From contig CAYOUG010000001.1 in assembly GCA_964407105.1 (NCBI GenBank), positions 164,273-228,272 on the forward strand: 64,000 nt of DNA. Reading direction: 5' to 3'. Each line of letters starts with the position of its first letter. The first letter of the stretch is position 1. This document shows, piece after piece, positions 1,549-57,511 of this stretch. The notes beneath the pieces were generated by a model, which saw only the letters and a list, made by a program, of their open reading frames with translations, made no database searches and was not told the DNA's origin. This stretch comes from an uncultured Candidatus Saccharibacteria bacterium. Lineage in GTDB: Bacteria > Patescibacteriota > Minisyncoccia > Phycocordibacterales > CALRHW01. Position numbers and translations under genes: made by a program.

Positions 1549-1592
1549 TTGAGACCAAGTGATAGTGCTGTAGTGAAGCTAGAGCACGGAAC

Positions 1593-2297
1593 TCAGTCAG
1601 GATCGACTCGCGAGAGAAGGAATGCGAAGCTGTACAAACCGTGACCCGCTCGATTCCAATTATCCTCTGGCCAGACAACATCAAGTGTCTTTGCAGAATC
1701 TATAAAGCGTCTTTCAGAGACCGTTGGAGAATGATCGGCCTGGCGAATTCCGAGCCGAATCTGATTTTGATCCTCCACCTCGTGCATCATGGTCAGATTC
1801 CAAAGACCCATCTCCCTAACCTGGTTGTCCGTGAAAGCTTCACGAAGGAGGAAACATGCTTCTAAAGGAAGTGGCCGCAGACAACGTCTCGAAGCATCGG
1901 CGACGACCATATCGGTCGTCAAAAGCTGTCTGCTAGATGCAAGCCCACGCCCATCTATGATGGCGACAGTGTACTCCACACCGCTCGTCACTTCAAACTT
2001 GGACGATCGCACTGATTCAGACCACTGACTCCTCATGCCATTCCTCAACTCCATGCCCAGATGACGCTCCCAATCATTTTTCGTCATACCAGTCGAGGTG
2101 AGAGTAGTATAGACAACGTTACCGTTGCGACGCCACCTAACCTCCGGCTTCGTGATACGCCACTCGCTGGAGTTCACCAGCCGAATAGCTTCGTTGGGAT
2201 CTTCTGCGCCCGTCTGCCTCATAATGTTCTTCAACAAAGCATTGAGCTTCATGATCTCTGGGAGAACATTAACAATAACAAGTGGATTCTTTTCCAT
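1593..2297 (-). CDS. hypothetical protein, encoded in a GC-rich islet
   Basis: Longest ORF in a visibly GC-rich block (about 1560-2340) with GC-rich codon usage unlike its neighbours; no recognisable motif. Confidence 0.5.
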   Translation of the reverse strand: MEKNPLVIVNVLPEIMKLNALLKNIMRQTGAEDPNEAIRLVNSSEWRITKPEVRWRRNGNVVYTTLTSTGMTKNDWERHLGMELRNGMRSQWSESVRSSKFEVTSGVEYTVAIIDGRGLASSRQLLTTDMVVADASRRCLRPLPLEACFLLREAFTDNQVREMGLWNLTMMHEVEDQNQIRLGIRQADHSPTVSERRFIDSAKTLDVVWPEDNWNRAGHGLYSFAFLLSRVDPD

Positions 2298-2508
2298 GTC
2301 TGTCCTTCTGGGCTAAATCGCCCAAAGACTTTTTTCCTCTAATCCGAGGAAGGAGCACAGACCATTATGGTCATAGCCAGTAGGTGCCGATTCATTTCGG
2401 CCTCTTTTGGCTATGACCATCTCGCAATTTCTCAAAGAACGTTATGGAAATATTATACCTTTATTTATATATAACGTCAAGTACTTTGTACATCATATTA
2501 CACCCTTG

Positions 2509-3207
2509 TTAAGCCATCAAAAAGAGCGCACTAGACACAACAGCCGCCGTCTCTGCCCGTAAAATATATGTACCCAGCGTGCGAACCTCTGCGCTTCGTG
2601 TAGAAAAAAGTGCAAGTTCTGCATCACTCCACCCACCCTCAGGGCCAACAAAAAGACTCACGCTACCACTACCGTGTTTCTCTGTATCTTGTAGTGAAGT
2701 ACCAGACGGATCAAAAACAAAAACATGCGTTTCTGCGCATAGTGTAAGAGCATCTTCAGGCGACAAAGCCTTATGTATGTAAGGCAACGTTCCCCTTCCA
2801 GACTGTTCGCTTGCCTCAATTACAATTTTTTCTAAACGTTCAACATTTAAATCTTTTTTTTCTGAGCGCTCCGCGAGTATTGGAACAATGTGTGACACGC
2901 CAAGCTCGGTAGCTTTTTGCGCGACCCATTCAAAATTATCTTTTTTAATGAGCGCAACACACAGCCACACTTCGCGCGGTGGCGCTGGCACTTCTTTTGC
3001 ACCATCCACCGTCACCTCCGCTTTTTCTTTAGACAGCATTTCAATGATGCACTCATATTCTTTTCCTGATCCATCAAAAAGCACCACTTTGTTGCCCGCA
3101 CCAAGACGAAAAACTTTTTTCCATTGATGCAGTGTGTCGGGGTTGGTAATAGAAAGAGTAGAACGACTTCCTATTGTTTCATGTATAAAAAATCTATGTA
3201 ATCGCAT
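2509..3207 (-). CDS. rsmE: 16S rRNA (uracil1498-N3)-methyltransferase RsmE family
   Basis: C-terminal GPEGGWS and LRAETA motifs typical of RsmE; length 232 aa. Confidence 0.8.
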   Translation of the reverse strand: MRLHRFFIHETIGSRSTLSITNPDTLHQWKKVFRLGAGNKVVLFDGSGKEYECIIEMLSKEKAEVTVDGAKEVPAPPREVWLCVALIKKDNFEWVAQKATELGVSHIVPILAERSEKKDLNVERLEKIVIEASEQSGRGTLPYIHKALSPEDALTLCAETHVFVFDPSGTSLQDTEKHGSGSVSLFVGPEGGWSDAELALFSTRSAEVRTLGTYILRAETAAVVSSALFLMA

Positions 3208-3323
3208 GTCATTAGTGTAGACACGGCTGAGAAAAAAGCAATAGTTTCAGCGCGCAACATACCCGTTGCGTCGCGCGCCTCTTTGATATACTATTATTGA
3301 ACTTTATTATTAACCACAAAAAC

Positions 3324-3893
3324 ATGTTAATCCCAACAGTGATTGAAAAAACAAATTTTGGCGAGCGAGCATATGATATCTACTCTCGCCTACTTAAAGA
3401 GCGCATCATTTTTCTTGGTGGTCCAATTGATGATTACATGGCAAATATTGTGATTGCCCAACTTCTTTTTCTTGAATCAGAAGATCCAAAAAAGGATATT
3501 TCCTTGTATATCAATTCTCCAGGAGGATCTGTGACAGCAACTCTTGCAATGCTTGATACAATGAATCATGTAAAACCAGACGTTTCTACTGTGTGTGTTG
3601 GTATTGCAGCTTCGGGCGCAGCAATTCTTCTTGCTGGTGGAGCAAAAGGAAAACGACTTCTCCTTCCAAACGCTGAGGTGATGATTCATCAGCCGTGGGG
3701 TGGGGTGCAAGGACAAGCGACAGATATTGAAATCACCGCAAAACAAATTCTTAAAACCCGAGCAAAACTTAATAAAATTCTTGCGGACGCAACAGGTCAA
3801 TCACTTACACAAATAGAAAAAGATGTAGAACGTGATTATTTTATGGATGCCTCTGAAGCAAAAAAGTACGGGATTATTGATAAGGTGTTGTAA
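3324..3893 (+). CDS. clpP: ATP-dependent Clp protease proteolytic subunit
   Basis: [46 protein letters not shown]; start placed at the internal ATG 3324, the six-frame ORF begins at 3297. Confidence 0.9.
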
Positions 3894-3946: not shown

Positions 3947-4183
3947 AATACTTTTTACAAACCTCGACAAAATGCCCTTTTTCTTATACTATGAAATTGT
4001 TCATTTTATTTGAAATTTTTTAATTTAGATATTGTCGCTTTAAATTTCTTGACCGTATGACTCTAGCCATTATTTCTCTACTTCCCTTCTTTCCGTTACA
4101 CAAGAAAACATAGTCGGATAAGCCTGCTATAGCGAGGCACTTCTATTCGTGCAGGAAGACAAAGCGTCGGTATTCGCACACAT

Positions 4184-5713
4184 ATGTCAATCAAAACAAT
4201 TCTGCTCTTTGCGGGGTTTATGACAATTTTGGGTGTTGCGTTCGGATATTTTTTACGTCTCATAATTTCTCTAGGTAGAAAAGGTTCCATGGAGCTTGAT
4301 ATCAAGCAAATGGAGCTTAAAAGCAGAGAACAAGCACAAAAAATAATTACTGAGGCAGAGGAAAAAGCCGAACACACCCTAAAAGAAGCCCGTATTGAAG
4401 TAAAAGAAAAAGAAGAAAAACTGAAAAAAGCTGAGGATCGCATCATTAAAAAAGAAGAGTTACTAGACAAACGACAAATAGATATCGATTCAGAAGTAGA
4501 ATATATAAAAAATCGAATTGAGGAAGTAAAATCTATAAAAGAGCGCGCTGATGGATTACTTTTGGAACGTGAACAAAATCTACAAAAAGTAGCTAATTTA
4601 AGCGTGGAAGCAGCAAAAGAAGAAGTTTTTGCGATTGTAGAAAAAAAACACGAGGAAGACATACTTGTACGTATGCAAAAACTTGAAATGCTCGGTGCAG
4701 AAAAGCTCGACCGTCGAGCAAAAGATATTTTAGCTACTTCTATTCAGCGTCTTGCTACGTCGGTGTCTTCTGAAATGCTTACTACTACAGTACAAATCCC
4801 AAGCGATGAAGTAAAAGGAAAAATTATTGGAAAAGAGGGTCGAAATATTAAGGCATTTGAGCGCGCGACCGGCGTAGAAATAATCGTCGACGACACGCCG
4901 GGGGCTATTACCATCTCGTCGTTTGATCCTGTGCGACGACAGGTCGCGCGCGTCGCACTCGAAGCACTCATTGCAGACGGCCGTATTCAGCCTGCAAAAA
5001 TCGAAGAAATGGTTGAGAAATCAAAAAACGATATCAATAAAATTATAAAAGATCAGGGTGAGGCGGCTGCATATGAGTGTGGGGTACTAAATCTAGATCC
5101 ACGCATCATCGCCATCCTTGGACGTCTACATTTTCGTACAAGTTACGGTCAAAATGTGCTTCAGCACTCTATAGAAATGACGCACATAGCAGGAATGCTT
5201 GCTGAAGAACTTGGCGCAAATGTGGCAGTAGCAAAAGCCGGCGCACTTCTTCACGACATCGGCAAAGCGCTCGATCACGAAGTAGCGGGTTCTCATGTAG
5301 AAATCGGACGCAGAATTTTGCAAAAATTTGGTGCTAGTGAAGAAATCGTTAAAGCAATGCAAGCACATCACGAAGAATACCCTTATGAAACAATCGAATC
5401 TATTATCGTACAGGTAGCTGATGCTATTTCAGGTGGTCGTCCGGGTGCACGACGTGACACAGTAGAAAATTATCTCAAACGTCTTGGTGATCTTGAAGCA
5501 ATCGCAACAGGTTTTAAGGGTGTAGAAAAATCATATGCCCTTCAAGCCGGAAGAGAAATTCGTGTGTTTGTTTTTCCTCAACAAGTGACAGAACTTGAAG
5601 CAAAAAATATGGCCCGAGATATCGCTCTAAAAATCGAAAATGATTTAAAATATCCAGGTGAAATTAAAGTAAATATTATTCGCGAATCTCGTTTCATAGA
5701 ATTCGCTAGATAA
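4184..5713 (+). CDS. rny: ribonuclease Y
   Basis: N-terminal TM helix, coiled coil, KH domain (GKEGRNIKAFERATGVEIIVDD) and HD domain (LLHDIGKA); contains a GC-rich codon patch at 4861-4951. Confidence 0.9.
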   Translation: MSIKTILLFAGFMTILGVAFGYFLRLIISLGRKGSMELDIKQMELKSREQAQKIITEAEEKAEHTLKEARIEVKEKEEKLKKAEDRIIKKEELLDKRQIDIDSEVEYIKNRIEEVKSIKERADGLLLEREQNLQKVANLSVEAAKEEVFAIVEKKHEEDILVRMQKLEMLGAEKLDRRAKDILATSIQRLATSVSSEMLTTTVQIPSDEVKGKIIGKEGRNIKAFERATGVEIIVDDTPGAITISSFDPVRRQVARVALEALIADGRIQPAKIEEMVEKSKNDINKIIKDQGEAAAYECGVLNLDPRIIAILGRLHFRTSYGQNVLQHSIEMTHIAGMLAEELGANVAVAKAGALLHDIGKALDHEVAGSHVEIGRRILQKFGASEEIVKAMQAHHEEYPYETIESIIVQVADAISGGRPGARRDTVENYLKRLGDLEAIATGFKGVEKSYALQAGREIRVFVFPQQVTELEAKNMARDIALKIENDLKYPGEIKVNIIRESRFIEFAR

Positions 5714-5817
5714 AAACACAAAAACAACTCTGTGTATAGTAGCTTGCGCTAAAAAAGCCTTATTATATAATGACAGAGTAATCAAAAAACGATTATTAAT
5801 AAGCCAATAGCAACACT

Positions 5818-6090
5818 ATGAACAAACAAGCAATTGCAGAAGCAGTGCATGTAAAATTGGGTGGAACAAAAGCTCAAGCAGAAGAATTGGTAGATATGAT
5901 AATTGATTCTATCGTTTCGACACTAAAAAAAGGAGACGAGGTTTCAATTGCTGGTCTTGGTATTTTTTCTACAAAAACACGAGCCGCACGACAAGCTCGA
6001 AATCCTCGCACAGGAGAATCTATTCAGGTTCCTGCGATGCGAGTTCCAAAGTTTCGCGCAGCTAAAGCACTCAAGGACGCGGTGAAATAG
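5818..6090 (+). CDS. hup: DNA-binding protein HU
   Basis: 90 aa; GxGxF..RxxRxGRNPxTGE..I HU signature. Confidence 0.9.
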   Translation: MNKQAIAEAVHVKLGGTKAQAEELVDMIIDSIVSTLKKGDEVSIAGLGIFSTKTRAARQARNPRTGESIQVPAMRVPKFRAAKALKDAVK

Positions 6091-6124
6091 TGTTTCGAGT
6101 CTAAAAAGAAAACAGCTTTCGTAG

Positions 6125-6187
6125 GGGGTCTCGAGCGCGACGGCGCGAGAGCTTCAGGAATTTTTAAGCTTCAAAAATTCCGTACCC
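6125..6187 (+). repeat. family A element copy A2, in the loop of the hup terminator hairpin
   Basis: 63-bp core flanked by CGTAG direct repeats and a 24-bp local inverted repeat (6097-6120 / 6188-6215); internal hairpin shows compensatory change GGAATTTTT/AAAAATTCC versus GGATTTTTT/AAAAAATCC in the other copies. Confidence 0.85.
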
Positions 6188-6344
6188 GTAGAAAGCTGTT
6201 TTCTTTTTTAGACTCTATTACTTTATACTAATCAACAAAAAACGGCCTCCTCGCTAACCCGCTCGAAGGCTGTTTTTTTATTGTTTTTTAATTGCTTTTA
6301 TTATTTAAATCATTAGTATAATCCTAGAGAAAGGAGTGTTTGCA

Positions 6345-6620
6345 ATGCCAAAAAACACTCAAGACACTGGCGTGAAATGTGTTATTCCAAATTGTGGTGG
6401 ATTTATTGTTGCAGAAATCGAACAAATAAAAACCGTGCCACTTGACCAAATACCATTTGGATCAAGTGGAATGAACTGCTTTGAAGTTGTAATTCACTTT
6501 CACTGCAGCAACCCACATTGCCAAGTAGCGTACCACTGCCCACCAGGAAAAGAAACACACGACAAAGATTGGTGGACTAAAGAAATAATGAAAAGGAGAC
6601 GAACACAAAACTTAGACTAG
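6345..6620 (+). CDS. small Cys/His-rich hypothetical protein (possible zinc-binding)
   Basis: AGGAG 8 nt upstream of the ATG at 6345; CxxxxC and HFHCSNPHC..HCPPG spacing. Confidence 0.5.
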   Translation: MPKNTQDTGVKCVIPNCGGFIVAEIEQIKTVPLDQIPFGSSGMNCFEVVIHFHCSNPHCQVAYHCPPGKETHDKDWWTKEIMKRRRTQNLD

Positions 6621-6663
6621 TGTTTTGTAAGTCATTGCAAAACACAATCCCCGCCCCGTAATA

Positions 6664-6695
6664 GGGGTGGTTTTTTATTCTAAAAAAACCACCCC
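6664..6695. terminator. bidirectional terminator hairpin
   Basis: GGGGTGGTTTTTT-attc-TAAAAAAACCACCCC between convergent genes. Confidence 0.5.
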
Positions 6696-6698
6696 ACC

Positions 6699-7403
6699 CT
6701 ACTCACTAAAAAATCCTGTTCCAATATTTTTTACAACAACAGAAGATGGTAAATCACCAGACTGATCAAGACGAAGTGTAAAAATATATGTACCCGGCTG
6801 AACAATATCAAACCCCATTATTTGTTTTTTAGATTCTGTTCCATAAAAACGTTCGTCCATATAACCCAAATCTTTTCCATCAAGAAATGCCGTAAATATT
6901 CCCTGCGCAACACTGTCACTCGTAAAATCCAAATCAAAATATAAATAATTGGAAGGTTTTGTGGTTGTTACGGCAAAAGAAACCCAGTTTGATCGTGCTT
7001 GAGAGGTAGATTTTATTGCAACAACACTACCAGACTGAACGGTTGCAAAAGAAAGATTATTTGATGTGTACTGAGAATTAAAAACATCCACCAATGGACC
7101 ATCAACCATTGTTTGTTGAATAGCTACAGCGGTAGCCTGAGTTTGATTTGAAACTGTAGCGGCAACATTTTTGGCAGAAGCAACGGCATTTGCTAGTGGA
7201 ATATTTTCATTTTGAGGTTTTTTTGTATTTAAATCATCCCAGCTAAGCTCATTTTTGTATGCCACAAATTCTTTACGCAAAAACAAAGATTTTATAAAAC
7301 TAATTAGTGTTTTGTCATTAATATAATTCCACCACGCTGCATGTGTTACGAGTGGAATAAAAAAAAGGCCACTCAATAAAATATAAAAAGTTATTTTCTT
7401 CAC
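6699..7403 (-). CDS. secreted or membrane-anchored hypothetical protein
   Basis: The six-frame ORF extends to 7568 but overlaps the tRNA-Gly; trimmed to a GTG at 7403 giving an N-terminal MKKITFYILLSGLFFIPLV signal/anchor; start uncertain. Confidence 0.5.
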   Translation of the reverse strand: MKKITFYILLSGLFFIPLVTHAAWWNYINDKTLISFIKSLFLRKEFVAYKNELSWDDLNTKKPQNENIPLANAVASAKNVAATVSNQTQATAVAIQQTMVDGPLVDVFNSQYTSNNLSFATVQSGSVVAIKSTSQARSNWVSFAVTTTKPSNYLYFDLDFTSDSVAQGIFTAFLDGKDLGYMDERFYGTESKKQIMGFDIVQPGTYIFTLRLDQSGDLPSSVVVKNIGTGFFSE

Positions 7404-7450
7404 AAATATATTATAGCGTAAACAAAACCAACCAGCGAGAAATATTTCTG

Positions 7451-7606: not shown

Positions 7607-7921
7607 TTACTGGTCGACTTTTTTCGTCTTCGCTATTTTAATAATCTCATCGAAATTATCTCTTGATGAAACCTTGTTTCTTTTGATCGCACCACATTTT
7701 TCACAAACAAAAACCAAATCATACTTCCCGACTATTCCCTCCACACCCACAGGCTTCATCATTCCCCCACAACCCGCTTCCCTGTCGCCAGGATGAATGT
7801 CCACATGCTTGCTCCACAAACATGTGGCGCAATGATTTGTAAAACCATTGCCGGCGTTTTCCGCATTACAGTGTTCGCATGTAAAATCTTCTTTACGTTT
7901 TTTAAATACTTCTGAGCTCAT
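7607..7921 (-). CDS. RNHCP-domain protein (zinc-ribbon-like)
   Basis: NHCATCLWSKHVD plus CEHC and CEKC pairs match the RNHCP domain signature. Confidence 0.65.
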   Translation of the reverse strand: MSSEVFKKRKEDFTCEHCNAENAGNGFTNHCATCLWSKHVDIHPGDREAGCGGMMKPVGVEGIVGKYDLVFVCEKCGAIKRNKVSSRDNFDEIIKIAKTKKVDQ

Positions 7922-8729: not shown

Positions 8730-9209
8730 TTATACATTAATATTCTCTATAACAGACACTTTCGCTCGCCTAGTGGAAAAATCTAAAACAACTGTAATTC
8801 CGTCTATCTGAAGGGGTGTTTCATGTGGAACATGAAACTTAAGAAGATAGAGCTGAACTGTTTTTGAGAAACGTTCGAGTTTTCGAAAATGTATGTTTTC
8901 CTCTGCGCGATATGAGTTTTTCTTTGTTTGCTCATCGTCCCCCACCCTTTTTCTTTCACGTGAAACAGTTTTTACTTCAAAAAAGTGTAGGGTTTTGATA
9001 TTTTGACCATCTTTCGTGTGATTTTTTATAGCCATGATATCTATTTCTCCACATTTTTGCCTAAAATTTCTCCCAACAACCTGAAAACCTTGTTTCACAA
9101 GAAACTTACATGCGATTTCCTCTCCCAAGACACCAACCTTTAAATGATCTGGCTTTTTTGTTTCTATATCTGGTTTTTTTGTAATTTTTGCTCTTTTGTC
9201 ACGTTTCAT
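8730..9209 (-). CDS. yraN: YraN-family (UPF0102) endonuclease-like protein
   Basis: GEEIACKFLVKQGFQVVGRNFRQKCGEIDIMA matches the YraN N-terminal signature. Confidence 0.7.
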   Translation of the reverse strand: MKRDKRAKITKKPDIETKKPDHLKVGVLGEEIACKFLVKQGFQVVGRNFRQKCGEIDIMAIKNHTKDGQNIKTLHFFEVKTVSRERKRVGDDEQTKKNSYRAEENIHFRKLERFSKTVQLYLLKFHVPHETPLQIDGITVVLDFSTRRAKVSVIENINV

Positions 9210-9507
9210 GATTAACATTGTTTCACGTGAAACATATTTTGAGGTTATTTAATAAAAAATCCTTAATATAAGCCATATTTCAATGAAAGACAGTTTGTAA
9301 TAGACAGAAAAATACCTGTCTTTTATACACATGTCCCCAGAGTTATCCACAGTTTTAAGGGTTTTTACCCATCAATTGAGACAAAATAAAAGACTTAAAA
9401 CGTCACATCGAAAAAAGCGTCACGCGTATTTAGGACAAAACTAGGACAAAACATTATTTCAATAAAAAAACGTCGCTTAACCACCACACCAACACCGTCT
9501 ATAAAAA

Positions 9508-12412: not shown

Positions 12413-13402
12413 TTATTTCTTATTATGAAACTTTTTATGCACTTCGCGGAGGTGTTTGTCAGTAAGATGAGTATAAATCTGTGTCGTACCAATGTTTGCA
12501 TGACCCAAAAGCATCTGCACAGAACGAAGATCGGCTCCATTTTGAAGTAAATCCGTCGCAAATGAGTGACGAATGACGTGTGGCGTCACTTTTTTAGTAA
12601 TCCCAGCTTTTATAGCGTAATATTTTACCAAACGTTCCACCGAGCGGGGAGTAAGGCGTGTGTCGTCTTTGTTTCCAACGTTTTTACCAAATTGTACAAA
12701 AAGTGCATCGTCAACATCCGTCCTCTTTGCGAGATATTTTTTAAGAGAATTTTTGGCATTATCCGAAAGAAATACCACACGCACCTTTTCGCCCTTACCG
12801 CGCACAGAAAACTCTTCACTTTTTAAATCTAAATCGCGTGTGAGGGAACAAAGCTCTGAAACACGTAGTCCTGTAGAGAAAAGAAGCTCTAAGATAGCAG
12901 CATCACGTAGAGATTTTACATCCTCTCCCTTTGGAGCAGACATGAGGCGGTCGAGTTCATCACGAGAAATGAGATCTATAGAACGTTCGGCTACTTTTGC
13001 AAGCTCTATTTGGTCTGGGTGCAAAGAAACAACCCTTCGACGAGCTAAATATTTTAAAAATGAACGTAACGCAATAAGATAATAATTTTGAGTGCGTTTT
13101 TTAAGACTGTCTGCACCGCCCTGTACACCAGCTTCTTTTTTGCCGGATTTTTGACGATTGAGCCACAGGCGATACTCACGCAAGACAGAGTCGTTGATAT
13201 CAGATGGGTTTTTCACCTTTGAAAATTCGAAAAAACGATCCAAATAGTGTTCATAATTTTGCACCGTTTTTAAACTGCGACCTTTTTCAATCTCTATATA
13301 TTCGAGATATTGACGTTTAAGTTCGGTCAGTTCGCTTTTTTGCTGACTTTCAGTTTTTTCGACCGGTTTTTCATTTTTTTTTAAATTTTTCTCTTGAGGC
13401 AT
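12413..13402 (-). CDS. tyrosine site-specific recombinase, XerC/XerD-like
   Basis: C-terminal RHSFATDLL..LLGHANIGTTQIYTHL catalytic motifs (R..H..R..Y). Confidence 0.85.
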   Translation of the reverse strand: MPQEKNLKKNEKPVEKTESQQKSELTELKRQYLEYIEIEKGRSLKTVQNYEHYLDRFFEFSKVKNPSDINDSVLREYRLWLNRQKSGKKEAGVQGGADSLKKRTQNYYLIALRSFLKYLARRRVVSLHPDQIELAKVAERSIDLISRDELDRLMSAPKGEDVKSLRDAAILELLFSTGLRVSELCSLTRDLDLKSEEFSVRGKGEKVRVVFLSDNAKNSLKKYLAKRTDVDDALFVQFGKNVGNKDDTRLTPRSVERLVKYYAIKAGITKKVTPHVIRHSFATDLLQNGADLRSVQMLLGHANIGTTQIYTHLTDKHLREVHKKFHNKK

Positions 13403-13448
13403 AAAATATTTTGCGACACTACTTATAGTATCACCAATAACAATTAGT

Positions 13449-14831
13449 ATGCTAGAATATATTTTAATGATTTCTCAAGAGGTGATCGTTCTTATATTAT
13501 TTGTATTAAGCTGCGCACAACTTATCTTTCTCGTTCGAAAATTGAAGTGGTCAGTATTTAAACAAAATATGTCGTCATATTTAATGCCGACATTTTCGGT
13601 TGTAACTTTTTATCTCTCATTATTTGTGCTTTTTATCAGTATCATTGAAGGTGTTGTGTTTGTGTTGCTTCCATTGATTGGATATTCATTGTCAAGCCAT
13701 TTCTCTGTTATCCGTGGTAATGGTTGGGGTACTCTTCTATTTTTAATTTATATATTATACCCAACACTTATTCTGTACACTTTTTTTACAACACTTGGAT
13801 GTATAGGACTTTTTATACACAAAATCACATCAGGATCATGGAAACGTATGCCAATGTGGCTCGTTGCATTTCTTGTAAGTACAATTGCTCTTCTTTCGAT
13901 GTTTGGACTTGTGATTTTTGTTTCTGATTTTTTTGACAACGTCATACAACGTTGGATTTCAAAAACGCTTACCTTATTTTATCGTGAATACGATCATGCT
14001 CCGTCACCTTTCTCTATAGTTTTCATATATCTTATGTTTTTGATTCAGGCAATAATTTCAGTTGCATACGCTTTTCGTCTCCGGGGGAGAGCGTGGTTTT
14101 ATTGGTTTTTAGCATTAATACACTCCATCTCGTTTTTGATTAGTTTCGGTGTAAATTCTTTTTTTCCATATCTTTTTATCATTACTCCCGCTTCGATAAT
14201 TGCAGCAATCGTATACGCACTTCATGGTAGTATTCATCCAAAGAAAATTATTGTTACAGGACTTATTATGATTGGGGTGTGTGCAATTATTACAGGGACA
14301 ATGATTGGACCAAATATTGCATCGTTTATTCGATACGGTATTGCTGGAGAAATAACTCTGCATATTGATTGCCCAGAATGTGTTGGTGATTCTCAGGTGT
14401 ACAAAATGACTGAACTTATGTTGTGTTCAAAAAATACTCTTTCTCAGGTAATGGATGGTAAGTTATCTGATCCGACTGATTTTTACACGAGCACCAGACA
14501 AGAGTTTTCATTTCCTTTATGCAATGCTGGCGGTACATGCCTACCATTCACTTGTGCAGTAAACAAGCGAGGCAATACGGCGGTAATAGGACATGAATTT
14601 TATTCAAGACCAGAAGTATGCTCAACTATAAAAATCTTTGATTCGCGAACATGGACAGCAAAAAACTTTAATGAATTTAAAACTCCACAGAATTGCGAGC
14701 AAAAATGTAATTCTATTGTTACAGCAAATAATAACAATTTCTGTTTGGGGCGATCTTTTGAATCATACAGTTCTCCACACCCCTTTGTAGAAAAAGTGTA
14801 TACCTGCGGATGTGTTATTAATACTTTGTAA
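13449..14831 (+). CDS. polytopic membrane protein with a C-terminal Cys-rich extracytoplasmic domain
   Basis: About ten hydrophobic segments followed by a roughly 150-aa domain with more than ten Cys; no recognisable family. Confidence 0.5.
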   Translation: MLEYILMISQEVIVLILFVLSCAQLIFLVRKLKWSVFKQNMSSYLMPTFSVVTFYLSLFVLFISIIEGVVFVLLPLIGYSLSSHFSVIRGNGWGTLLFLIYILYPTLILYTFFTTLGCIGLFIHKITSGSWKRMPMWLVAFLVSTIALLSMFGLVIFVSDFFDNVIQRWISKTLTLFYREYDHAPSPFSIVFIYLMFLIQAIISVAYAFRLRGRAWFYWFLALIHSISFLISFGVNSFFPYLFIITPASIIAAIVYALHGSIHPKKIIVTGLIMIGVCAIITGTMIGPNIASFIRYGIAGEITLHIDCPECVGDSQVYKMTELMLCSKNTLSQVMDGKLSDPTDFYTSTRQEFSFPLCNAGGTCLPFTCAVNKRGNTAVIGHEFYSRPEVCSTIKIFDSRTWTAKNFNEFKTPQNCEQKCNSIVTANNNNFCLGRSFESYSSPHPFVEKVYTCGCVINTL

Positions 14832-19453: not shown

Positions 19454-19495
19454 GTTGCTGGTGTTTTGAAACAAAAAGAAAAAGTGGTGTTTAGG

Positions 19496-25370: not shown

Positions 25371-25396
25371 AACAAAAAACTTTTATATCTTTCTTC

Positions 25397-25459: not shown

Positions 25460-25505
25460 CTACGAAAGATATAAAAGTTTTTTATTTTATTTTTTTGTTT
25501 AAACT

Positions 25506-42503: not shown

Positions 42504-42508
42504 ATTTT

Positions 42509-42763: not shown

Positions 42764-42765
42764 GG

Positions 42766-48953: not shown

Positions 48954-49058
48954 GCTAGACAGCTGTTATGCATTACGCTAATGATGTATTGACAAATACA
49001 TCAAATTATGCTATACTCTACGTTAGAAATACCTTGAAATTAAATGTGTGTTGAGATG

Positions 49059-49110
49059 TTTGCCACAACGGAAAATGGCTTGAAAATAAGCTATTTTCCG
49101 TTGTGGCAAA
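49059..49110. promoter_or_regulatory. 52-bp palindrome (perfect 18-bp arms) upstream of the GC-rich ORF; candidate operator
   Basis: TTTGCCACAACGGAAAAT-ggcttgaaaataagct-ATTTTCCGTTGTGGCAAA, about 50 nt upstream of the ATG at 49158. Confidence 0.4.
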
Positions 49111-49157
49111 CCAATGTGGTTAAGCCAACAAACAGCACTTCAGAAAGGAAAAGTCAC

Positions 49158-49718
49158 ATGGCACGTTCAAAGTCTGAAAAACTCATGAACCCGGCGACAG
49201 AATTGGAAATCGGAGAGGTGGAAGCAGTGGACACTTTTGTTTTGAAAGGAGACTCTTTCATTACGATCAGAGAGGGAAAACAGACCTCGACGATGGTGGC
49301 TTCCATCGACCCCTTTTTTATGAGTCGATTTTTTACGAAGACCCCAAATGCGGATCATGCCATGGTGGTTGTCAAACCACCAACATTGAAACGAAGGTTT
49401 CAGTGCACCGGCTTGAAGCGATACGACCATGGAAGGTACGTGGTTGCGAGCGAGGTGATTCGCGAGTTGGGTGGGGAAGCAAAGGTCGCAATAACTCCAG
49501 CGGAGTTTTGTCACTTTCTGGCGTCCCAATCCGATGATTTTAGGTTCAAGAATCGCGTTTGTTTTATGAGGGACACAAGTGGTGTTCTTCAGGAGGTTTA
49601 TGTGAGTTACTACCAACATGGTTCTCTAGCTGGTCTTCATATCAGCGCCAACCTCATCAATTGCGGTCGATGGTCTGAGGGAACACGTTTGGTTTTCCCT
49701 CGTGCCAAAGGAAAGTGA
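49158..49718 (+). CDS. hypothetical protein in a GC-rich islet
   Basis: GAAAGGAAAAG ribosome-binding site; GC-rich codon usage unlike the flanking ruvB and pilB; no recognisable motif. Confidence 0.5.
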   Translation: MARSKSEKLMNPATELEIGEVEAVDTFVLKGDSFITIREGKQTSTMVASIDPFFMSRFFTKTPNADHAMVVVKPPTLKRRFQCTGLKRYDHGRYVVASEVIRELGGEAKVAITPAEFCHFLASQSDDFRFKNRVCFMRDTSGVLQEVYVSYYQHGSLAGLHISANLINCGRWSEGTRLVFPRAKGK

Positions 49719-49750
49719 TTCAATACACGAGATCCCTGATCGTTCTCTAT

Positions 49751-49790
49751 GGTCCTCGTTTGCTTAGGCAGACCGAGGACCATTTTTTTT
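49751..49790 (+). terminator. GC-rich intrinsic terminator
   Basis: GGTCCTCG-tttgcttaggcagac-CGAGGACC followed by TTTTTTTT. Confidence 0.75.
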
Positions 49791-50204
49791 ATTTAATTAT
49801 TTCACTTGACATTTTAGACAATGTATGATACATTTATGGGGAACTTGAAATATGGCGGTGTCAAACGATCAAAGACAGACAGTCCTTGATTTTTTTCTCG
49901 CCTTGGGTAATATATGAGACTCCCACTTTATGGGGTACTCCTTTGTCAATCCAAGATATAAATCTCTAAGCAACGAGGCCTTACGGCCTAGTAAGATTTC
50001 TTCAGAGGACATTCTGGTTACCACCTTGTGTGGTTTGCTGGGGTTATCCTATGTGAAATGTTTAACTTTTGGTACGAATATTAAAAGTGTTGCTTAGAGA
50101 TTTATGTCTTTGATTGTTTTAAAAACAATTCATCTCTACTAGTCTAATTATTCATAGGAAAAGAGTTTCTGCAATCTTGTAAAACAAAAAATCTGTTTCT
50201 TAAT

Positions 50205-51914: not shown

Positions 51915-52002
51915 GGTGTATTTATACTAACATTTTCGGTGAGTGTTACACACGTGTGGTGTGGAAAGGTTTTGCTTTTAAGGTAGTATTTATTAGCTAG
52001 TA

Positions 52003-52031
52003 TTGACTTTTATTCTTCATTGTGCTATAAT
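52003..52031 (+). promoter_or_regulatory. sigma70-like promoter for the GC-rich lipoprotein gene
   Basis: TTGACT, 17-nt spacer, TATAAT, about 65 nt upstream of the ATG; AAAGGAGGG ribosome-binding site. Confidence 0.55.
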
Positions 52032-52097
52032 AGAAAAGGATGAAGTGAGGAATGTTTCCTGCTTCAAATACAGAAATTCCGCCCAAAGGAGGGCATC

Positions 52098-52430
52098 ATG
52101 ACAACTCGATCGAACATTATCAAACTCGCAGTTCTCACCTTCGTCGCGATGCTCCTCGGTGGAGCGTTTGGCGGATGTGGTCCTCAACGGACCACGTCGA
52201 TTGAGACTGTGGTTAACCCCGACGGTTCAACCACGGTCCACAAGTACAAGACGGTTGTCGAGGGAGGGAGCGGAATGTTCGCCCCCGTCCACATCAACCG
52301 ATACTCGTCCCCCGGATATGTTCGGGGGCGATACGTGGAATGGGGTACGGAGAATCGCGGGGTTGCTTATCACAGCTTCGGGCTCAACGAGCCCCACAAG
52401 CACGTGTATGGCAACAACTGCAACAAGTGA
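52098..52430 (+). CDS. small putative lipoprotein in a GC-rich islet
   Basis: Signal peptide ending ..LLGGAFGGC (lipobox-like); GC-rich codons; own promoter and terminator. Confidence 0.55.
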   Translation: MTTRSNIIKLAVLTFVAMLLGGAFGGCGPQRTTSIETVVNPDGSTTVHKYKTVVEGGSGMFAPVHINRYSSPGYVRGRYVEWGTENRGVAYHSFGLNEPHKHVYGNNCNK

Positions 52431-52627
52431 ATGATGAAGTGTATACCACAACATCATCACAACGCGCGCTTAACCTTTCGAGGTTTGGCGCGTTTTTTCT
52501 TGTGTGTATACGTATTTTTTTTAATAATTTAAATATTGACTGTCGATATAATTTATGTTAGTATTGTGGAAGATTAAACAGCAGAAATTTTTTCAGCTGT
52601 TTCCGCAAAGCCAACAGAAAGGAAGTT

Positions 52628-53020
52628 ATGAAGCTCTTTGGAATTGTTGCTGCGGCGATGGTTGCAGCTGTGTCATGTGGTGCGTTGGCTGAGACGATTA
52701 CGCGTACCGAGTACGCTGGTGGGCCGGTCATGACGTACACCAACGGTGTGCTCACGCATGTCAACGGTATGAGTGTGCCACCACCCGCACCTCCGCCAGC
52801 CCCCGTTGTGCAGACGCAGGTTGTGGTGGTGCAACAGTATGCCCCGCCTCCGCAGGTGGTGTGTGTCGAACGGCCACGCGTGGTCTTTCGGTACTACCAC
52901 CAGCCGACGTACTGCGCACCGGTGGTGCATGTGCGTTCGTGTGAATCACGGGTGAATGTTGGCCTTTCAGTCGGCATTCGTTTCGGTGGTGGACACGATC
53001 ACTTTCACCCTTGCCGCTAG
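52628..53020 (+). CDS. small secreted Pro-rich, Cys/His-containing protein in a GC-rich islet
   Basis: Signal peptide (..CGALA/ETI), PPPAPPPAP linker, four Cys and GGGHDHFHPC at the C-terminus; own promoter-like TTGACT..TAGTAT and AAAGGAAG ribosome-binding site. Confidence 0.55.
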   Translation: MKLFGIVAAAMVAAVSCGALAETITRTEYAGGPVMTYTNGVLTHVNGMSVPPPAPPPAPVVQTQVVVVQQYAPPPQVVCVERPRVVFRYYHQPTYCAPVVHVRSCESRVNVGLSVGIRFGGGHDHFHPCR

Positions 53021-53085
53021 ACGTTTGCATCTCTCTTGGGGTGCGCACGCGTCAGATCTTTATGGTCTGACGCGTTTTCTTTTAC

Positions 53086-53158
53086 AAAATTTGTTGTAAC
53101 CCCCCACCCAACACTCTCTCACTAAAGCGCTTCGCTAACCCGTTCGAGAGTGTTGGGT
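53086..53158. repeat. exceptionally long perfect hairpin (23-bp GC-rich stem, 27-nt loop) upstream of tsaE
   Basis: GTAACCCCCCACCCAACACTCTC ... GAGAGTGTTGGGTGGGGGGTTAC; loop contains TCGCTAACCCGTTCGAG, similar to the loop at 6251-6268. Confidence 0.7.
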
Positions 53159-53172
53159 GGGGGGTTACACCC

Positions 53173-53703: not shown

Positions 53704-56240
53704 CTTCTGCTATACAAAAAGAAAAAACGAAAACCCGCATCAGTGGTGAACAAAAAAAAGTTGTACTACTCGATGTGCATGCAATAATTCATCGCGCTTA
53801 TCATGCGTTGCCTGATTTTTCATCTGCGAAAGGTGAGCCCACTGGTGCGCTTTATGGTTTGTGCACAATGCTTCTAAAAATCGCAGGTGAACTTTCTCCA
53901 GATTATGTAGTGGCGTGTTATGATCTTCCAGAAAAAACACATCGACACGAAGTGTACGAAGCGTACAAAGGTACACGTAAGAAAATTGACGATGCGCTTA
54001 TTGCGCAGATTATACGTTCTCGAGATATTTTTACAGCGTTTAATATTCCTATCTATGCATGTCCGGGTTTTGAAGCAGATGATGTGCTTGGTACTATTGC
54101 AGAACATTTAAAAAAGGGGGACGCAACGGTGGGTGATGATAAAAAAGTTGATGTTAATGTAAGTGTGATTATTGCTTCTGGTGATATGGATACGCTTCAG
54201 CTTGTTGATGATAAAAAAGTGCAAGTTTACACTTTGCGAAAAGGAATTAAAGACACGGTGCTTTATGACGAAGAGGCGGTGTGTGAGCGTTTTGGTTTTG
54301 CGCCAATACTTTTGCCAGATTTTAAAGGACTTCGTGGAGACCCCTCAGATAATATTATTGGCATCAAAGGTATTGGAGAAAAAACCGCGACAACACTTAT
54401 TACAACATTTGGCTCGATAGAAAAAATGTATGAGGCGCTTGCTAAAGGTGATGCGTCATTTAAAGAAGCTGGAATTACTCCGAGAATTATTGATTTGTTG
54501 CGAGCAGGAAAAGAAGAGGCGATGTTTTCAAAAACACTTGCAACGATTCGTCGTGATGCACCGATAGATTTTTCTTTGCCAGAACAAACATGGAAAGAAT
54601 CGCTCTCGCAAAATGGCTCACATATTGCGATACTCAGTGCTCTTTTTGCAGAACTAGATTTTCGTTCAATGATGGGTCGTGTGGAAGAAGTGTTGCTTGG
54701 GAAAAAGCCTCTCAAGCAGAGCAGTTTGCTTGGTGTGGACAATGAGAGTGGATTGGGTGCGGCGGGAGCGGCAGAGGGCGTGGGCGTAAGCGCGGGCACG
54801 GTAGCGCTCCCGCCGCATGAACAAAAGCTTCTTTCTCTTGCCCTGTGGATTATTGATTCAAATATTTCAAATCCCACAACAGAAGATATTTTGCGCTTTG
54901 CACACACCGACTCACTCGTTGTCGCACAAAAAATGATTTTCTCCGAACTTGAAAAACGCGGTCTTTTGAAAGTATTTAAAGAAATTGAAGAGCCGCTCAT
55001 TGCCGTGATAGATGGAATGCAAACTCGAGGGATAAAAGTAGATACGAAATATTTAAAAACACTTTCGCAGGAGTATCATGCACGTCTCAAAGATCTTGAG
55101 AAAAATATTTACAAAGAAGCGGGAGGGGAGTTTAATATCAACTCACCAAAACAAATGGGCGAGATTCTTTTCGATAAACTCGGCCTCTCTGTGAAAGGAC
55201 AAAAGAAAACTGCGGGCGGTGCAAAATCTACGCGCGAAAGTGAGCTTGAAAAAATGATTGATATTCATCCAATCATCAAACACATTCTCACATATCGGAT
55301 GCTTCAAAAACTCGTTTCTACATACATCGACACGTTACCCACAATGCTTGCGGAAGACGGACGCCTACACACCACCTTTGAACAAACAGGCACCACCACC
55401 GGCCGTATGTCTTCCAACAATCCCAACCTTCAAAATATTCCTATCAAAACAGAAGAAGGTCGTCGCATCCGAAATGCTTTTGTAAGCGAGCGAGGTTTCA
55501 AACTCGTCACCTTCGACTATTCTCAAATCGAACTTCGCATCGCAGCATTTCTTTCTGGCGATCAAAAACTAATTGAAATTTTTACATCCGGCGGAGACAT
55601 TCATGAAGCGGTGGCGTCGCAAGTGTTTGGTGTACCGCGCGAAAAAGTGGATAGGGAAATGCGCCGCAGGGCGAAAGTTATCAACTTCGGCATTCTTTAT
55701 GGTATGGGAGTAAATGCTTTGCGTGCAAATTTAAGTGAAGGCGTAGCAAAGGGTTCTGAAGTTTCCCGCGAAGAAGCGCAGCGTTTTTTTGACGAATATT
55801 TTAATACATTCACCGGTCTCGCACAGTATTTAGAAAATGTAAAAGCGAGCGCAAAAAAGACCGGCTACACAGAAACATTTTTCGGTCGTCGTAGATATTT
55901 TCCGCAGATAAAATCTAAGCTTCCATACATTGTGGCGGCAAATGAGCGCATGGCTATCAACGCTCCGATACAAGGCACAGCAGCGGATGTGATCAAGCTT
56001 TCTATGATTCACATTCACGACTACATTAAAAAAGAAGGTTTGGAGAACGATGTGTTTCTCTTGCTTCAGGTGCACGATGAACTTGTGTTTGAAATTCGTG
56101 AAGATGCTGTGAAAAAAGTGTTGCCGGAGCTTGAGCGTATTATGCAAAGCGTGCTTACTCCTACGCAAATGCGTGGCGTGCCTTTAAAAGTAAATGGTAA
56201 ATTGGGGGACAATTGGGGCGAGACTGAAGAGATCAAATAA
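53700..56240 (+). CDS. polA: DNA polymerase I (5'-3' exonuclease plus polymerase domains)
   Basis: FEN motifs in the N-terminal domain; motif A DYSQIELR, motif B RRAKVINFGILYG, motif C LLQVHDELVFE; contains an in-frame GC-rich palindromic insertion in the inter-domain linker. Confidence 0.9.
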   Translation: MTSAIQKEKTKTRISGEQKKVVLLDVHAIIHRAYHALPDFSSAKGEPTGALYGLCTMLLKIAGELSPDYVVACYDLPEKTHRHEVYEAYKGTRKKIDDALIAQIIRSRDIFTAFNIPIYACPGFEADDVLGTIAEHLKKGDATVGDDKKVDVNVSVIIASGDMDTLQLVDDKKVQVYTLRKGIKDTVLYDEEAVCERFGFAPILLPDFKGLRGDPSDNIIGIKGIGEKTATTLITTFGSIEKMYEALAKGDASFKEAGITPRIIDLLRAGKEEAMFSKTLATIRRDAPIDFSLPEQTWKESLSQNGSHIAILSALFAELDFRSMMGRVEEVLLGKKPLKQSSLLGVDNESGLGAAGAAEGVGVSAGTVALPPHEQKLLSLALWIIDSNISNPTTEDILRFAHTDSLVVAQKMIFSELEKRGLLKVFKEIEEPLIAVIDGMQTRGIKVDTKYLKTLSQEYHARLKDLEKNIYKEAGGEFNINSPKQMGEILFDKLGLSVKGQKKTAGGAKSTRESELEKMIDIHPIIKHILTYRMLQKLVSTYIDTLPTMLAEDGRLHTTFEQTGTTTGRMSSNNPNLQNIPIKTEEGRRIRNAFVSERGFKLVTFDYSQIELRIAAFLSGDQKLIEIFTSGGDIHEAVASQVFGVPREKVDREMRRRAKVINFGILYGMGVNALRANLSEGVAKGSEVSREEAQRFFDEYFNTFTGLAQYLENVKASAKKTGYTETFFGRRRYFPQIKSKLPYIVAANERMAINAPIQGTAADVIKLSMIHIHDYIKKEGLENDVFLLLQVHDELVFEIREDAVKKVLPELERIMQSVLTPTQMRGVPLKVNGKLGDNWGETEEIK
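54759..54815 (+). repeat. in-frame GC-rich palindromic insertion within polA (57 bp, 19 codons; encodes AAGAAEGVGVSAGTVALPP)
   Basis: 11-bp terminal inverted repeat GCGGCGGGAGC / GCTCCCGCCGC; codon usage foreign to the rest of polA. Confidence 0.6.
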
Positions 56241-56256
56241 TTTTTACACAATATTT

Positions 56257-56976
56257 ATGCTCTACTTTCTCTACGGCACAGATTCAAAAAAAGCTCGCAA
56301 CAAACTTCACGAGCTGCTCGAAACGCTTCAAAAGAAAAAACCGGATGCGAGCGTTTTTCGTATAGAAGCAGAGCAGTGGAACGCGGCACAATTTGAAGAA
56401 TTGCTCAGCGGACAAGGACTTTTTTCAAACAAATATATTGTGGTACTTGATCGCGTGTTTGAAAATACGGAAGCAAAAGAATATATTGTAGACTCTCTAA
56501 AAAAAGTTGCGGAGTCTGACAATGTTTTTATTTTTATTGAAGGTAAGATAGACGTCGCGACGCTCAAGAAGATCGAAAAGCATGCACAGAAAACGCAGGA
56601 ATTTGAAGAGAAAAAAAATGCGCCAGCCGCGCAAGCATTTAATATGTTTTCTCTCACCGATGCGTTTGGTACGCGCGATAAAAAAAAGTTGTGGGTGCTT
56701 TATCAGCAGGCAATTGCTTCGGGTGCACAGCCAGAAGAAATTCACGGCATTTTATTTTGGCAACTCAAAAGTATGATCGTGGCATCGGAAGCGGGGAGTG
56801 CTGAAGCTGCGGGCCTGAAGCCCTTTGTGTATCAAAAGTCGCGCGGGTTTGCTGCAAAATTTTCTCCTGCCGAACTACGCTCTATGTCCAGTGCTTTCAT
56901 CGACATCTACCACAACGCTCGCCGCGGAATATGTGACATGGACATTGCGCTTGAGAAGTTTGTGTTGGGGTTATAG
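56257..56976 (+). CDS. holA: DNA polymerase III delta subunit-like protein
   Basis: N-terminal LYFLYGTD and overall HolA-like pattern; the longer ORF from 56194 overlaps polA. Confidence 0.6.
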   Translation: MLYFLYGTDSKKARNKLHELLETLQKKKPDASVFRIEAEQWNAAQFEELLSGQGLFSNKYIVVLDRVFENTEAKEYIVDSLKKVAESDNVFIFIEGKIDVATLKKIEKHAQKTQEFEEKKNAPAAQAFNMFSLTDAFGTRDKKKLWVLYQQAIASGAQPEEIHGILFWQLKSMIVASEAGSAEAAGLKPFVYQKSRGFAAKFSPAELRSMSSAFIDIYHNARRGICDMDIALEKFVLGL

Positions 56977-57082
56977 GACAATTTGAAATTACGTATTGTT
57001 GACTTATTTCTACCTCATGTTACCATCTTTGCTTGACGTGTTTTTGTGTTCGGGGGTTCATTTAACATCTTGGGAGTCTAGA

Positions 57083-57400
57083 ATGCTTAGCTTGGTGATC
57101 GAAGTGAGTCATGAATTGTTTCTTCGCGTCGAGGAACTGACGAATGCTGTGGTGAGGGCGGTCGTTGAGGCAACCGGAATCAACGCCGCCGATCTGTGGT
57201 TTTTTGTGAAGGGACCACCTGAACAAGATCTGGCTCCAAATGGGGTCATGATCAAGACGAGCGGTTGGTCGCAACAAACAGATTGGCTACAACAGCTTGA
57301 AAGAGCTGTCACGAACGCAATCAGCGGGATGGGCTTTCAACCGCAAAGGGTTGCGATGTGTCATTCGGTGGCATTGCGAAGCACGCTTTTTTCCCACTGA
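57083..57400 (+). CDS. small hypothetical protein in a GC-rich islet
   Basis: GGAG ribosome-binding site; GC-rich codons; followed by the GC-rich terminator CCGCCCG..CGGGCGG at 57432-57470. Confidence 0.45.
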   Translation: MLSLVIEVSHELFLRVEELTNAVVRAVVEATGINAADLWFFVKGPPEQDLAPNGVMIKTSGWSQQTDWLQQLERAVTNAISGMGFQPQRVAMCHSVALRSTLFSH

Positions 57401-57511
57401 ATCGATCCGATGATCAAAAAACAAAAAACGTCCCGCCCGCAGAAGTCGCACGACTCTCGGGCGGCTTTTGTTTTGTAAATTAAAAAACTGCTAAAAGCAG
57501 TTTTTTTCTAG

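Follow-up and report, generated by a model that had tools for sequence, protein, structure and literature searches.

In a 64-kb window of the genome of an uncultured Candidate Phyla Radiation (CPR) bacterium (the whole stretch that was analysed: positions 164,273 to 228,272 of contig CAYOUG010000001.1), four GC-rich islets are scattered among housekeeping genes, and they encode five small proteins, which we will call i1, i2, i3a, i3b, and i4 after the islets that hold them. We propose that the islets are independent, monocistronic accessory genes that occupy variable slots between conserved genes; that they came from a horizontally circulating pool of GC-richer genes and have not been ameliorated to the composition of their host; that they do not form one system; and that the hairpins found beside two of them were not the vehicle of insertion. 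We give this proposal a probability of roughly 0.6. The gene of islet 1 encodes a member of a family of variable proteins of the type that is diversified by diversity-generating retroelements (DGRs), and it shares a conserved leader hairpin with i2.

The window has a GC content of 0.38 (38%). Across 60 greedy calls of open reading frames (ORFs), the median gene has a GC content of 0.385 and a GC content at third codon positions (GC3) of 0.28, versus a GC3 of 0.49–0.68 for the islet genes. By a leave-one-out score of synonymous codon usage, the islet ORFs are the five lowest of the 60 genes (z = −4.6 to −9.0). Both G and C are increased at their third positions and A is decreased, which is the pattern expected of a source genome with about 50–55% GC. 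An earlier note on this sequence had described blocks of elevated GC and foreign codon usage amid housekeeping genes, and both parts of that description hold up: the neighbors of the islets are tig, rsmE, clpP, ruvB, pilB, tsaE, polA, holA, and tRNA-Lys. The note had also counted one gene per islet. This is correct for islets 1, 2, and 4, but the block at 52000–53080 contains two genes (i3a and i3b), which brings the count to five genes for the four islets. The next-lowest codon scores in the window are z = −3.5, for a gene with an RNHCP domain (7607–7921 on the minus strand, GC3 0.41), and z = −2.9, for holA (56194–56976 on the plus strand, GC3 0.44); these are milder outliers.

The islet genes look like self-contained transcription units (Table). 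Sites that match the sigma-70 consensus at 11 of 12 positions lie directly upstream of i1, i2, and i3a and are the best in the scanned regions; the promoter-like sites of i3b and i4 are weaker (9/12, with a TG extension). In all five genes, a ribosome-binding site precedes the ATG by 5–8 nt. Each gene is followed by a GC-rich hairpin and a run of T, as the earlier note had claimed; these were read from the sequence, and a strict terminator scan picks up the terminator of i3b only. The five proteins show no paralogy to each other. Pfam, PHROG, NCBIfam, and PADLOC gave no family for any of them, with the sole match being a weak one of i2 to PADLOC's PDC-S05 (E = 0.004). We also considered a phage or plasmid origin, but tblastn of the five proteins against a plasmid collection gave no match, and neither did comparisons of i1 and i2 (the only two proteins searched there) to phage genomes and to viral contigs from IMG/VR.

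Searches with PolA and RsmE returned only contigs of the Parcubacteria/Paceibacteria type of CPR, with the same gene order as the window. The nearest relatives are L003 (75% identity in PolA) and L039 (89% in ClpP and 86% in RNase Y). Of about 50 relatives, most have a gap of 5–130 bp between the convergent genes rsmE and tig, and L039 has one of 72 bp, versus 1034 bp here; the enlarged gap is filled exactly by the i1 unit. (In a few relatives, this site holds an extracytoplasmic-function (ECF) sigma factor, Clp-N repeat proteins, a GATase, or an L,D-transpeptidase; such slot occupants, including the first two, often have elevated GC.) The gap between ruvB and pilB is about 300–470 bp in most relatives and 1285 bp here, and the surplus (48954–49800) is the i2 unit. 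The distance from holA to tRNA-Lys is 52 bp in L003 versus 534 bp here, where i4 lies; in other relatives this slot contains pyrC/pyrD or other DNA, often of elevated GC. Because these sites are empty in the closest syntenic relatives, i1, i2, and i4 are lineage-specific insertions; for i2, this is true against nearly all of the relatives that we compared. No homologue or family was detected for i2, using a word-index search rather than the exhaustive search that we ran for i1, and a single-sequence AlphaFold 2 model of i2 was unusable (mean predicted local distance difference test, or pLDDT, of 35). No homologue or family was detected for i4 either, although its orphan status is weakly tested.

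Islet 3 has a different history. The gap between pilB and tsaE is occupied in nearly all relatives. In 12 relatives, it holds one or two small secreted proteins, mostly with a lipoprotein-type signal, and all 15 of these slot genes are GC-richer than their own locus, by 0.04–0.17. Islet 3 is a long-standing variable slot rather than a one-off capture, so the earlier note's idea of repeated small-scale gene capture stands for i1, i2, and i4 but not for this islet. Some of the slot genes are homologous across genomes (L007 with L025, L010 with L028, and L012 with L026). All that i3a has in common with the slot gene of L003 is the signal peptide and a GCGP lipobox (E = 1e-4). By eye, the promoter and 5' untranslated region (UTR) of i3a also seemed homologous to those of the L003 gene, but the best blastn score was 22 bits, which is below the maximum of 27 bits from shuffled sequences. 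We found no homologues of i3a or i3b beyond this likeness of signal peptides, and their orphan status is weakly tested.

Several other features of these slots were noticed along the way. In L005 (13177–15350) and L024 (13529–14566), the slot between holA and tRNA-Lys holds a dihydroorotase, identified by eye from the translations, and L005 also has a dihydroorotate dehydrogenase; these genes have GC about 0.10 above their hosts, and metabolic genes appear to have been acquired at the i4 slot as well. In L007, the same slot has about 1 kb of GC-rich DNA (13181–14230, 0.56–0.59 vs. 0.46) with no convincing ORF and no match in Rfam. In L013, at the position of tRNA-Lys(UUU), ARAGORN calls a tRNA with a UUA anticodon ("tRNA-Stop", 12795–12868 on the minus strand), which might reflect suppression, recoding, or simply an error. 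In the pilB-tsaE slot of L004, the gene at 8978–9481 (GC 0.56 vs. 0.42) resembles, by eye, the glycine-zipper or 17-kDa-surface-antigen type of lipoprotein that is typical of Proteobacteria; if that likeness holds, it would hint at acquisition across phyla.

The gap between ruvB and pilB also contains a conserved candidate structured RNA (49949–50127 on the plus strand), and at least 11 relatives have it in the same place. A 25-bp stem (ATAAATCTCTAAGCAA / TTGCTTAGAGATTTAT) closes the structure, and three hairpins lie inside it. Compensatory changes are seen in 26 of the 50 predicted pairs, and invariant U-G/G-U pairs indicate the plus strand. A promoter-like site lies at 49806–49834. Rfam has no match to this candidate at E ≤ 1.

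An exhaustive HMMER search with i1 found 533 relatives at E ≤ 1e-3 and 109 at E ≤ 1e-10. They are at most 45% identical to i1 and have about 210–230 residues. The word-index search had returned only i1 and i2 themselves and had missed all of these, so its "orphan" results are weak. The family has a near-invariant N-terminal motif, LNALVKNIMRQTG..DPNEAVRLVNSGEW, and a C-terminal W..GFAF motif. The predicted fold of i1, which is confident, is of the C-type-lectin/FGE type, with the variable region at the C terminus. Judging from its sequence, then, i1 is a member of a CPR family of DGR variable proteins with about 220 residues and a C-type-lectin fold. The "unknown function" that the earlier note had assigned to all of these proteins still describes i2, i3a, i3b, and i4, but not i1.

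Three homologues of i1, which are 36–42% identical to it, have the signature of a DGR. In L123, the homologue ends in 128 nt that match, at 89%, a repeat lying 340 nt downstream, and all 14 mismatches are at adenines of the downstream copy; this template repeat is followed by an RVT_1 (reverse transcriptase) gene with a GxxxSQ motif. In L130, the order is target, template repeat, bAvd, and RVT_1, and 16 of 17 mismatches are at adenines of the template. L119 has a pair of variable and template repeats with about 12 of 13 mismatches at template adenines. The counterpart of the variable repeat in i1 is its last 55 or so codons (about 1596–1766). Other members of the family stand alone amid housekeeping genes, and their loci are unrelated from one CPR contig to the next. 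(The L130 element, at 4178–6770 between valS and tsaD, is a complete CPR DGR, and the bases of its variable repeat that lie opposite template adenines are nearly all G.)

The window itself has no template repeat or reverse transcriptase for any of the islets. No repeat of positions 1501–1900, and thus no cognate template repeat, is found anywhere in the 64 kb, and tblastn with the reverse transcriptase from L123 gave no match in the window. Either i1 would be an orphaned, frozen copy, or an element elsewhere in the genome would act on it at a distance, as known DGRs do on remote targets (PMC8867640). At 90% identity, i1 forms a cluster by itself, and its sequences in NCBI and Logan do not differ. 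We found no members of the family in viral contigs (using the family alignment against IMG/VR), phage genomes, or plasmids, which agrees with the report that CPR bacteria possess their own, cell-encoded clade of DGRs (PMC8144416).

DGR targets have an initiation of mutagenic homing (IMH) sequence and a GC-rich hairpin or cruciform on the 3' side of the variable repeat, with a stem of 7–10 bp and a GRNA loop, 4–34 bp away (PMC3240598). A GC-rich hairpin with 15-nt arms does lie just beyond i1, between the stop codons of tig and i1, and it might have a role in DGR targeting. It is about 43 nt past the i1 stop, where the equivalent of the variable repeat ends, which is on the side where DGR targets have such a hairpin; its CACA loop is unlike the GRNA consensus (PMC3240598). 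It may be a plain terminator, and it probably acts as a bidirectional one.

Some other candidate relatives of i1 were rejected. The family profile matched the structure 9ncf, but this is a weak, repeated alignment to immunoglobulin-type (Ig) repeats and was disregarded. In L125, a second GC-elevated gene (6761–7429, 222 aa, GC 0.46 vs. 0.34) lies directly upstream of the i1-family gene; it belongs to no family that we could find and has no detectable relation to i1 or i2. As remote members of the i1 family, this gene, i2, and i4 all had hhalign probabilities below 3%. A likeness by eye between i2 and the L125 gene was not supported by BLASTP.

The earlier note had pointed to long inverted repeats upstream of two of the starts, and both are real: that of i1 has 24-nt arms with 83% complementarity, and that of i2 is nearly perfect (Table). 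Both lie between the promoter and the ribosome-binding site, that is, in the 5' UTR. The TGGTCATAGCCA...TGGCTATGACCA hairpin of i1 recurs in L119, L123, L130, and L132, where it precedes the start codon of the homologue by 50–130 nt. A covariance model also finds it upstream of the family genes in L120, L125, L126/127/129, and L131 (E = 1e-8 to 1e-12), with almost no other matches in about 1 Mb. In other words, the hairpin is upstream of every i1-family gene that we examined, and these are at unrelated chromosomal positions. In an alignment of nine leaders, 93.7% of cells are paired and ten pairs have compensatory changes, which none of 500 shuffles reached; slid registers of the alignment collapse. 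Conserved G-U pairs, and scores that are far higher on the sense strand than on the antisense strand, indicate that the leader hairpin is an RNA element.

With model R2, from which it had been left out, the i2 hairpin reaches 34.5 bits (E = 2.8e-9), versus 19 bits for the highest-scoring unrelated hairpin in the window; the perfect palindrome next to islet 3 gets no score. We conclude that the hairpins of i1 and i2 are of one motif class that is tied to genes, not to insertion sites. In the window, the model finds the motif at i1 and i2 only, within their transcription units, and not at i3a, i3b, or i4. Against Rfam, the leader gave only chance matches of the microRNA type, far below gathering thresholds, and the motif did not turn up in a brief check of the literature. 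The model DGR of phage BPP-1 has its cis elements downstream of the variable repeat and can do without the sequence upstream of it (PMC3240598), so the leader is not a known DGR element. It might control mRNA stability, translation, or protein binding.

Our proposal can be put together as follows. The backbone near the replication origin is strongly syntenic, and accessory genes would occupy only a few of its intergenic slots. Islet 1 would be a complete unit (promoter, leader, ORF, and terminator) encoding a DGR-type variable protein. In intact elements of this family, the reverse transcriptase, with Avd, would copy the template repeat and misincorporate at adenines, and the resulting complementary DNA would overwrite the last 130 or so nucleotides of the target gene. 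The leader of i1 is a 5'-leader RNA element found across the family. The i2 protein, although an orphan that is unrelated to i1, has a leader of this type as well and is probably of the same regulatory or mobile kind. Islet 3 would be the local form of the pilB-tsaE slot, with its small, secreted, mostly lipoprotein-like proteins that turn over quickly, and islet 4 a small orphan gene that was put in downstream of tRNA-Lys.

Table. Coordinates of the islet genes, their putative signals, and other features of the window.
Feature	Position	Strand	Details
GC-rich hairpin	1517–1550		15-nt arms; lies between the stop codons of tig and i1
i1	1593–2297	−	234 aa; GC 0.50; GC3 0.54
i1 leader hairpin	2367–2420	−	stem TGGTCATAGCCA / TGGCTATGACCA; ~70 nt upstream of ATG
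i1 promoter-like site	2452–2480	−	TTGACG-17-TATAAT; 11/12
dnaA	39818–41173		
dnaN	41403–42503		
i2 promoter-like site	48989–49017	+	TTGACA-17-TATACT; 11/12; with TG
i2 leader hairpin	49058–49111	+	24-nt arms at 96%; 19-bp perfect core
i2	49158–49718	+	186 aa; GC 0.465, GC3 0.49 (values from the longer ORF 49044–49718)
i2 terminator	49749–49791	+	hairpin and T-run; read from sequence
i3a promoter-like site	52003–52031	+	TTGACT-17-TATAAT; 11/12
i3a	52098–52430	+	110 aa; GC 0.56; GC3 0.68; predicted lipoprotein; signal peptide with lipobox FGGC; terminator about 52452–52489
i3b promoter-like site	52536–52564	+	TTGACT-17-TAGTAT; 9/12; with TG
i3b	52628–53020	+	130 aa; GC 0.59; GC3 0.60; predicted secreted Pro/Val-rich protein; signal peptide ending AVSCG; terminator 53047–53075
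Palindrome	53095–53169		perfect 24-bp GC-rich arms TGTAACCCCCCACCCAACACTCTC; 27-nt spacer; between the i3b terminator and tsaE
i4 promoter-like site (weak)	56999–57026	+	9/12; with TG
i4	57083–57400	+	105 aa; GC 0.49, GC3 0.53 (values from the longer ORF 56996–57400); between holA and the 3' end of tRNA-Lys; terminator about 57433–57475
tRNA-Lys(UUU)	57511–57584	−	3' end toward islet 4

Why are these genes GC-rich? Of nine contexts compared, five have a gene of the i1 family that is GC-richer than its host by +0.08 to +0.18: +0.12 for i1 itself (no template repeat within 64 kb), +0.18 in both L119 and L130 and +0.08 in L123 (all with a template repeat), and +0.11 in L125 (where the contig ends before a template repeat could be seen). 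The other four are close to their hosts and have no template repeat in the locus: +0.03 in L132, +0.02 in L131, −0.01 in L120, and −0.02 in L126. This is most simply read as recent transfer from GC-richer CPR lineages, with later amelioration. (According to the earlier note, close homologues of the same composition in related low-GC genomes would count against capture. To some extent i1 has these: its homologues, at 45% identity or less, are found in low-GC CPR, and many are GC-rich there too.) Several observations weigh against our proposal. In L130, the target has a GC content of 0.57 (GC3 0.69) and the template repeat 0.50, but avd is at 0.39, the reverse transcriptase at 0.38, and the host genes at 0.38–0.42; since avd and the reverse transcriptase are native in GC, simple transfer of the whole cassette is no explanation. 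The genes of the pilB-tsaE slot are GC-rich in every relative that carries them, which suggests either a persistent composition that is specific to this class of genes or constant replacement. No donor has been identified for any islet, and for i2, i3a, i3b, and i4, the case for a foreign origin consists solely of composition and empty sites. We found no integrase, attachment (att) repeats, or target-site duplications that would account for entry. And because the closest relatives are distant, with PolA at 75% identity, the gains are not dated.

These observations leave some room, perhaps one chance in four by our reckoning, for GC-richness that is intrinsic. The islets would then be long-resident, fast-evolving genes for surface or ligand-binding proteins whose GC3 is kept high by selection (for mRNA structure or expression control) or by GC-biased gene conversion with frequent recombination, possibly linked to DGRs. 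This would fit with the L130 cassette, with the elevated GC of the slot genes in all 12 relatives, whose hosts range from 37% to 55% GC, with the signal peptide and GCGP lipobox that i3a and the L003 slot gene have in common, and with the fact that the family members linked to a template repeat are the most GC-elevated while most lone copies are host-like. However, it seems inconsistent with the absence of i1, i2, and i4 from the closest syntenic relatives, with the four i1-family members of host-like GC, and with the slot genes of different relatives being mostly unrelated in sequence; even the DNA of the i3 region and the L003 slot is not similar above chance (22 vs. 27 bits). If DGR activity had shaped whole genes, we might expect depletion of adenines on the sense strand. 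We tried this as a footprint and rejected it: the homologues linked to a template repeat are depleted in A and T alike at third positions, with no sense-strand depletion specific to adenine outside the variable repeat. We also considered that non-shared genes might be GC3-elevated in general, as 18% of them versus 2% of shared genes exceed +0.10, but this is weak (Mann-Whitney p = 0.15) and confounded by locus coverage.

A more speculative idea, which we consider somewhat less probable still, is that the shared leader marks CPR-wide modules (promoter, leader, and ORF) for hypervariable ligand-binding proteins. These would include both DGR targets and new families such as i2, would move between slots and DGRs independently of the reverse transcriptase, and would keep a GC-rich composition that is foreign to every host; together with the pilB-tsaE slot, they would form a distributed, exchangeable toolkit for surface variation in these episymbionts. 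A GC-rich target and template repeat beside a native avd and reverse transcriptase, as in L130, fits this idea.

The earlier note had suggested that palindromes or hairpins acted as integration hotspots that captured the genes, and that islet borders might coincide with families of hairpin elements. Two islets do have long inverted repeats beside the ORF, and a palindrome abuts islet 3. But for i1 and i2 this mechanism is contradicted, and overall we think it very improbable. The two hairpins sit between the inserted gene's own promoter and its ribosome-binding site, and the i1 hairpin accompanies its family at many unrelated loci, with RNA-type covariation and strand asymmetry. i3a, i3b, and i4 lack the motif. 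The palindrome at islet 3, which has no Rfam family, is unique in the window and is the only long palindrome at an islet border. The window has five long inverted repeats with arms of 18–39 nt and spacers of 58–70 nt (63–180, 182–312, 6103–6208, 19467–19586, and 25361–25496), AT-rich with G/C-rich inner ends; these are probably the note's hairpin families, and none of them borders an islet. No direct repeats of 9 bp or more, att sites, or target-site duplications flank any islet, and comparison of the islet ORFs and the scanned flanking ORFs to Pfam found no integrase or transposase (most ORFs in the window were not scanned).

Three known kinds of insertion do not fit, either. Integrase-mediated islands have a recombinase, att repeats, and a duplicated tRNA 3' end; here, only i4 adjoins a tRNA, and each islet holds just one or two small ORFs without a Pfam match. 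Integron cassettes, which form arrays beside intI of ORFs that lack a promoter and end in attC, are unlike these dispersed units with their own promoters and a hairpin 5' of the ORF, and no recurring family of palindromes flanks the insertions, as it would for repetitive extragenic palindromes (REP) or miniature inverted-repeat transposable elements (MITE). Under our proposal of independent accessory genes, entry by recombination in the conserved flanks after DNA uptake is plausible.

GC-rich blocks in AT-rich genomes are often structured RNAs, and i3a, i3b, and i4 are so short that the length of the ORF is weak evidence. Could the blocks be non-coding RNAs, or chimeras from assembly or contamination, with spurious ORFs? 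We see hardly any chance of this. The GC-rich blocks have no Rfam match at gathering or E-value thresholds. GC2 is below both GC1 and GC3 in 5 of 5 islet ORFs, and these ORFs have properly spaced ribosome-binding sites; a signal peptide with a lipobox is present in both i3a and i3b; and i1 has hundreds of protein homologues and a confident fold. Furthermore, host DNA runs on without a break into the promoters and flanks, and Logan contigs from SRR12487045 independently show the junctions of islets 1 and 3. The i2 protein is likewise recorded in Logan.

The rest of the window is a conventional backbone, with tig, rsmE, clpP, RNase Y, HU, dnaA, dnaN, ruvC, ruvB, pilB, tsaE, polA, holA, and six tRNAs. 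The part with the lowest GC (41000–43000, 0.27–0.31) holds the dnaA/dnaN region, and the cumulative GC skew has its minimum at about 38–41 kb, just upstream of these genes. Taken together, these indicate that the window spans the replication origin. Islets 2–4 are 8–17 kb from it.

Taken alone, the islets are ordinary horizontally acquired genes. What is new here is the assignment of i1 to a family, the leader common to that family and i2, the conserved variable slots, and the candidate structured RNA beside islet 2. CPR bacteria have tiny genomes in which the order of genes is highly conserved, and they are believed to live attached to other microbes, so their few variable genes are the best candidates for host recognition. 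As a DGR-type variable binding protein, i1 would be a candidate host-recognition factor. The covariance-supported leader motif can be used as a query for finding more such genes in metagenomes. Also, acquired genes are usually AT-richer than their host. Accessory genes that fill the same slots and are GC-richer than their host run contrary to this, which bears on where CPR bacteria obtain their genes.

Like the genomic islets of other bacteria, ours are single genes with deviant codons between conserved neighbors, in slots that are variably filled, with one beside the 3' end of a tRNA-Lys. Unlike those islets, these insertions are GC-richer than the host, and we found neither att or tRNA-fragment repeats nor, among the scanned ORFs, an integrase or insertion sequence (IS). 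Single-ORF units accompanied by an imperfect inverted repeat (about 55 nt) also bring to mind the attC cassettes of integrons and REP/MITE elements. But here the hairpin is upstream of the ORF and downstream of the unit's own promoter, and it acts on the sense strand of the RNA; the units form no array, IntI is lacking, and the element is not repeated at the borders. The counterparts of islet 3 are reminiscent of the variable surface-lipoprotein loci of host-associated bacteria, as they are small, secreted, and fast-diverging and are found at a fixed locus by the gene for a type IV pilus ATPase. Unlike those loci, the slot showed neither repeats nor phase-variation tracts nor paralogous arrays, and homology across genomes is mostly undetectable. 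The systems closest to i1 are the C-type-lectin variable proteins of DGRs (Mtd of Bordetella phage BPP-1, TvpA of Treponema denticola, and the FGE-type targets) and the cellular clade of DGRs that is restricted to CPR. Compared to these known targets, i1 has no template repeat or reverse transcriptase in its window. Its family has a conserved hairpin in the 5' UTR, whereas the cis elements of BPP-1 are downstream (PMC3240598). The family also has its own N-terminal helical motif, with no Pfam or NCBIfam model, and i1 is much GC-richer than its host.

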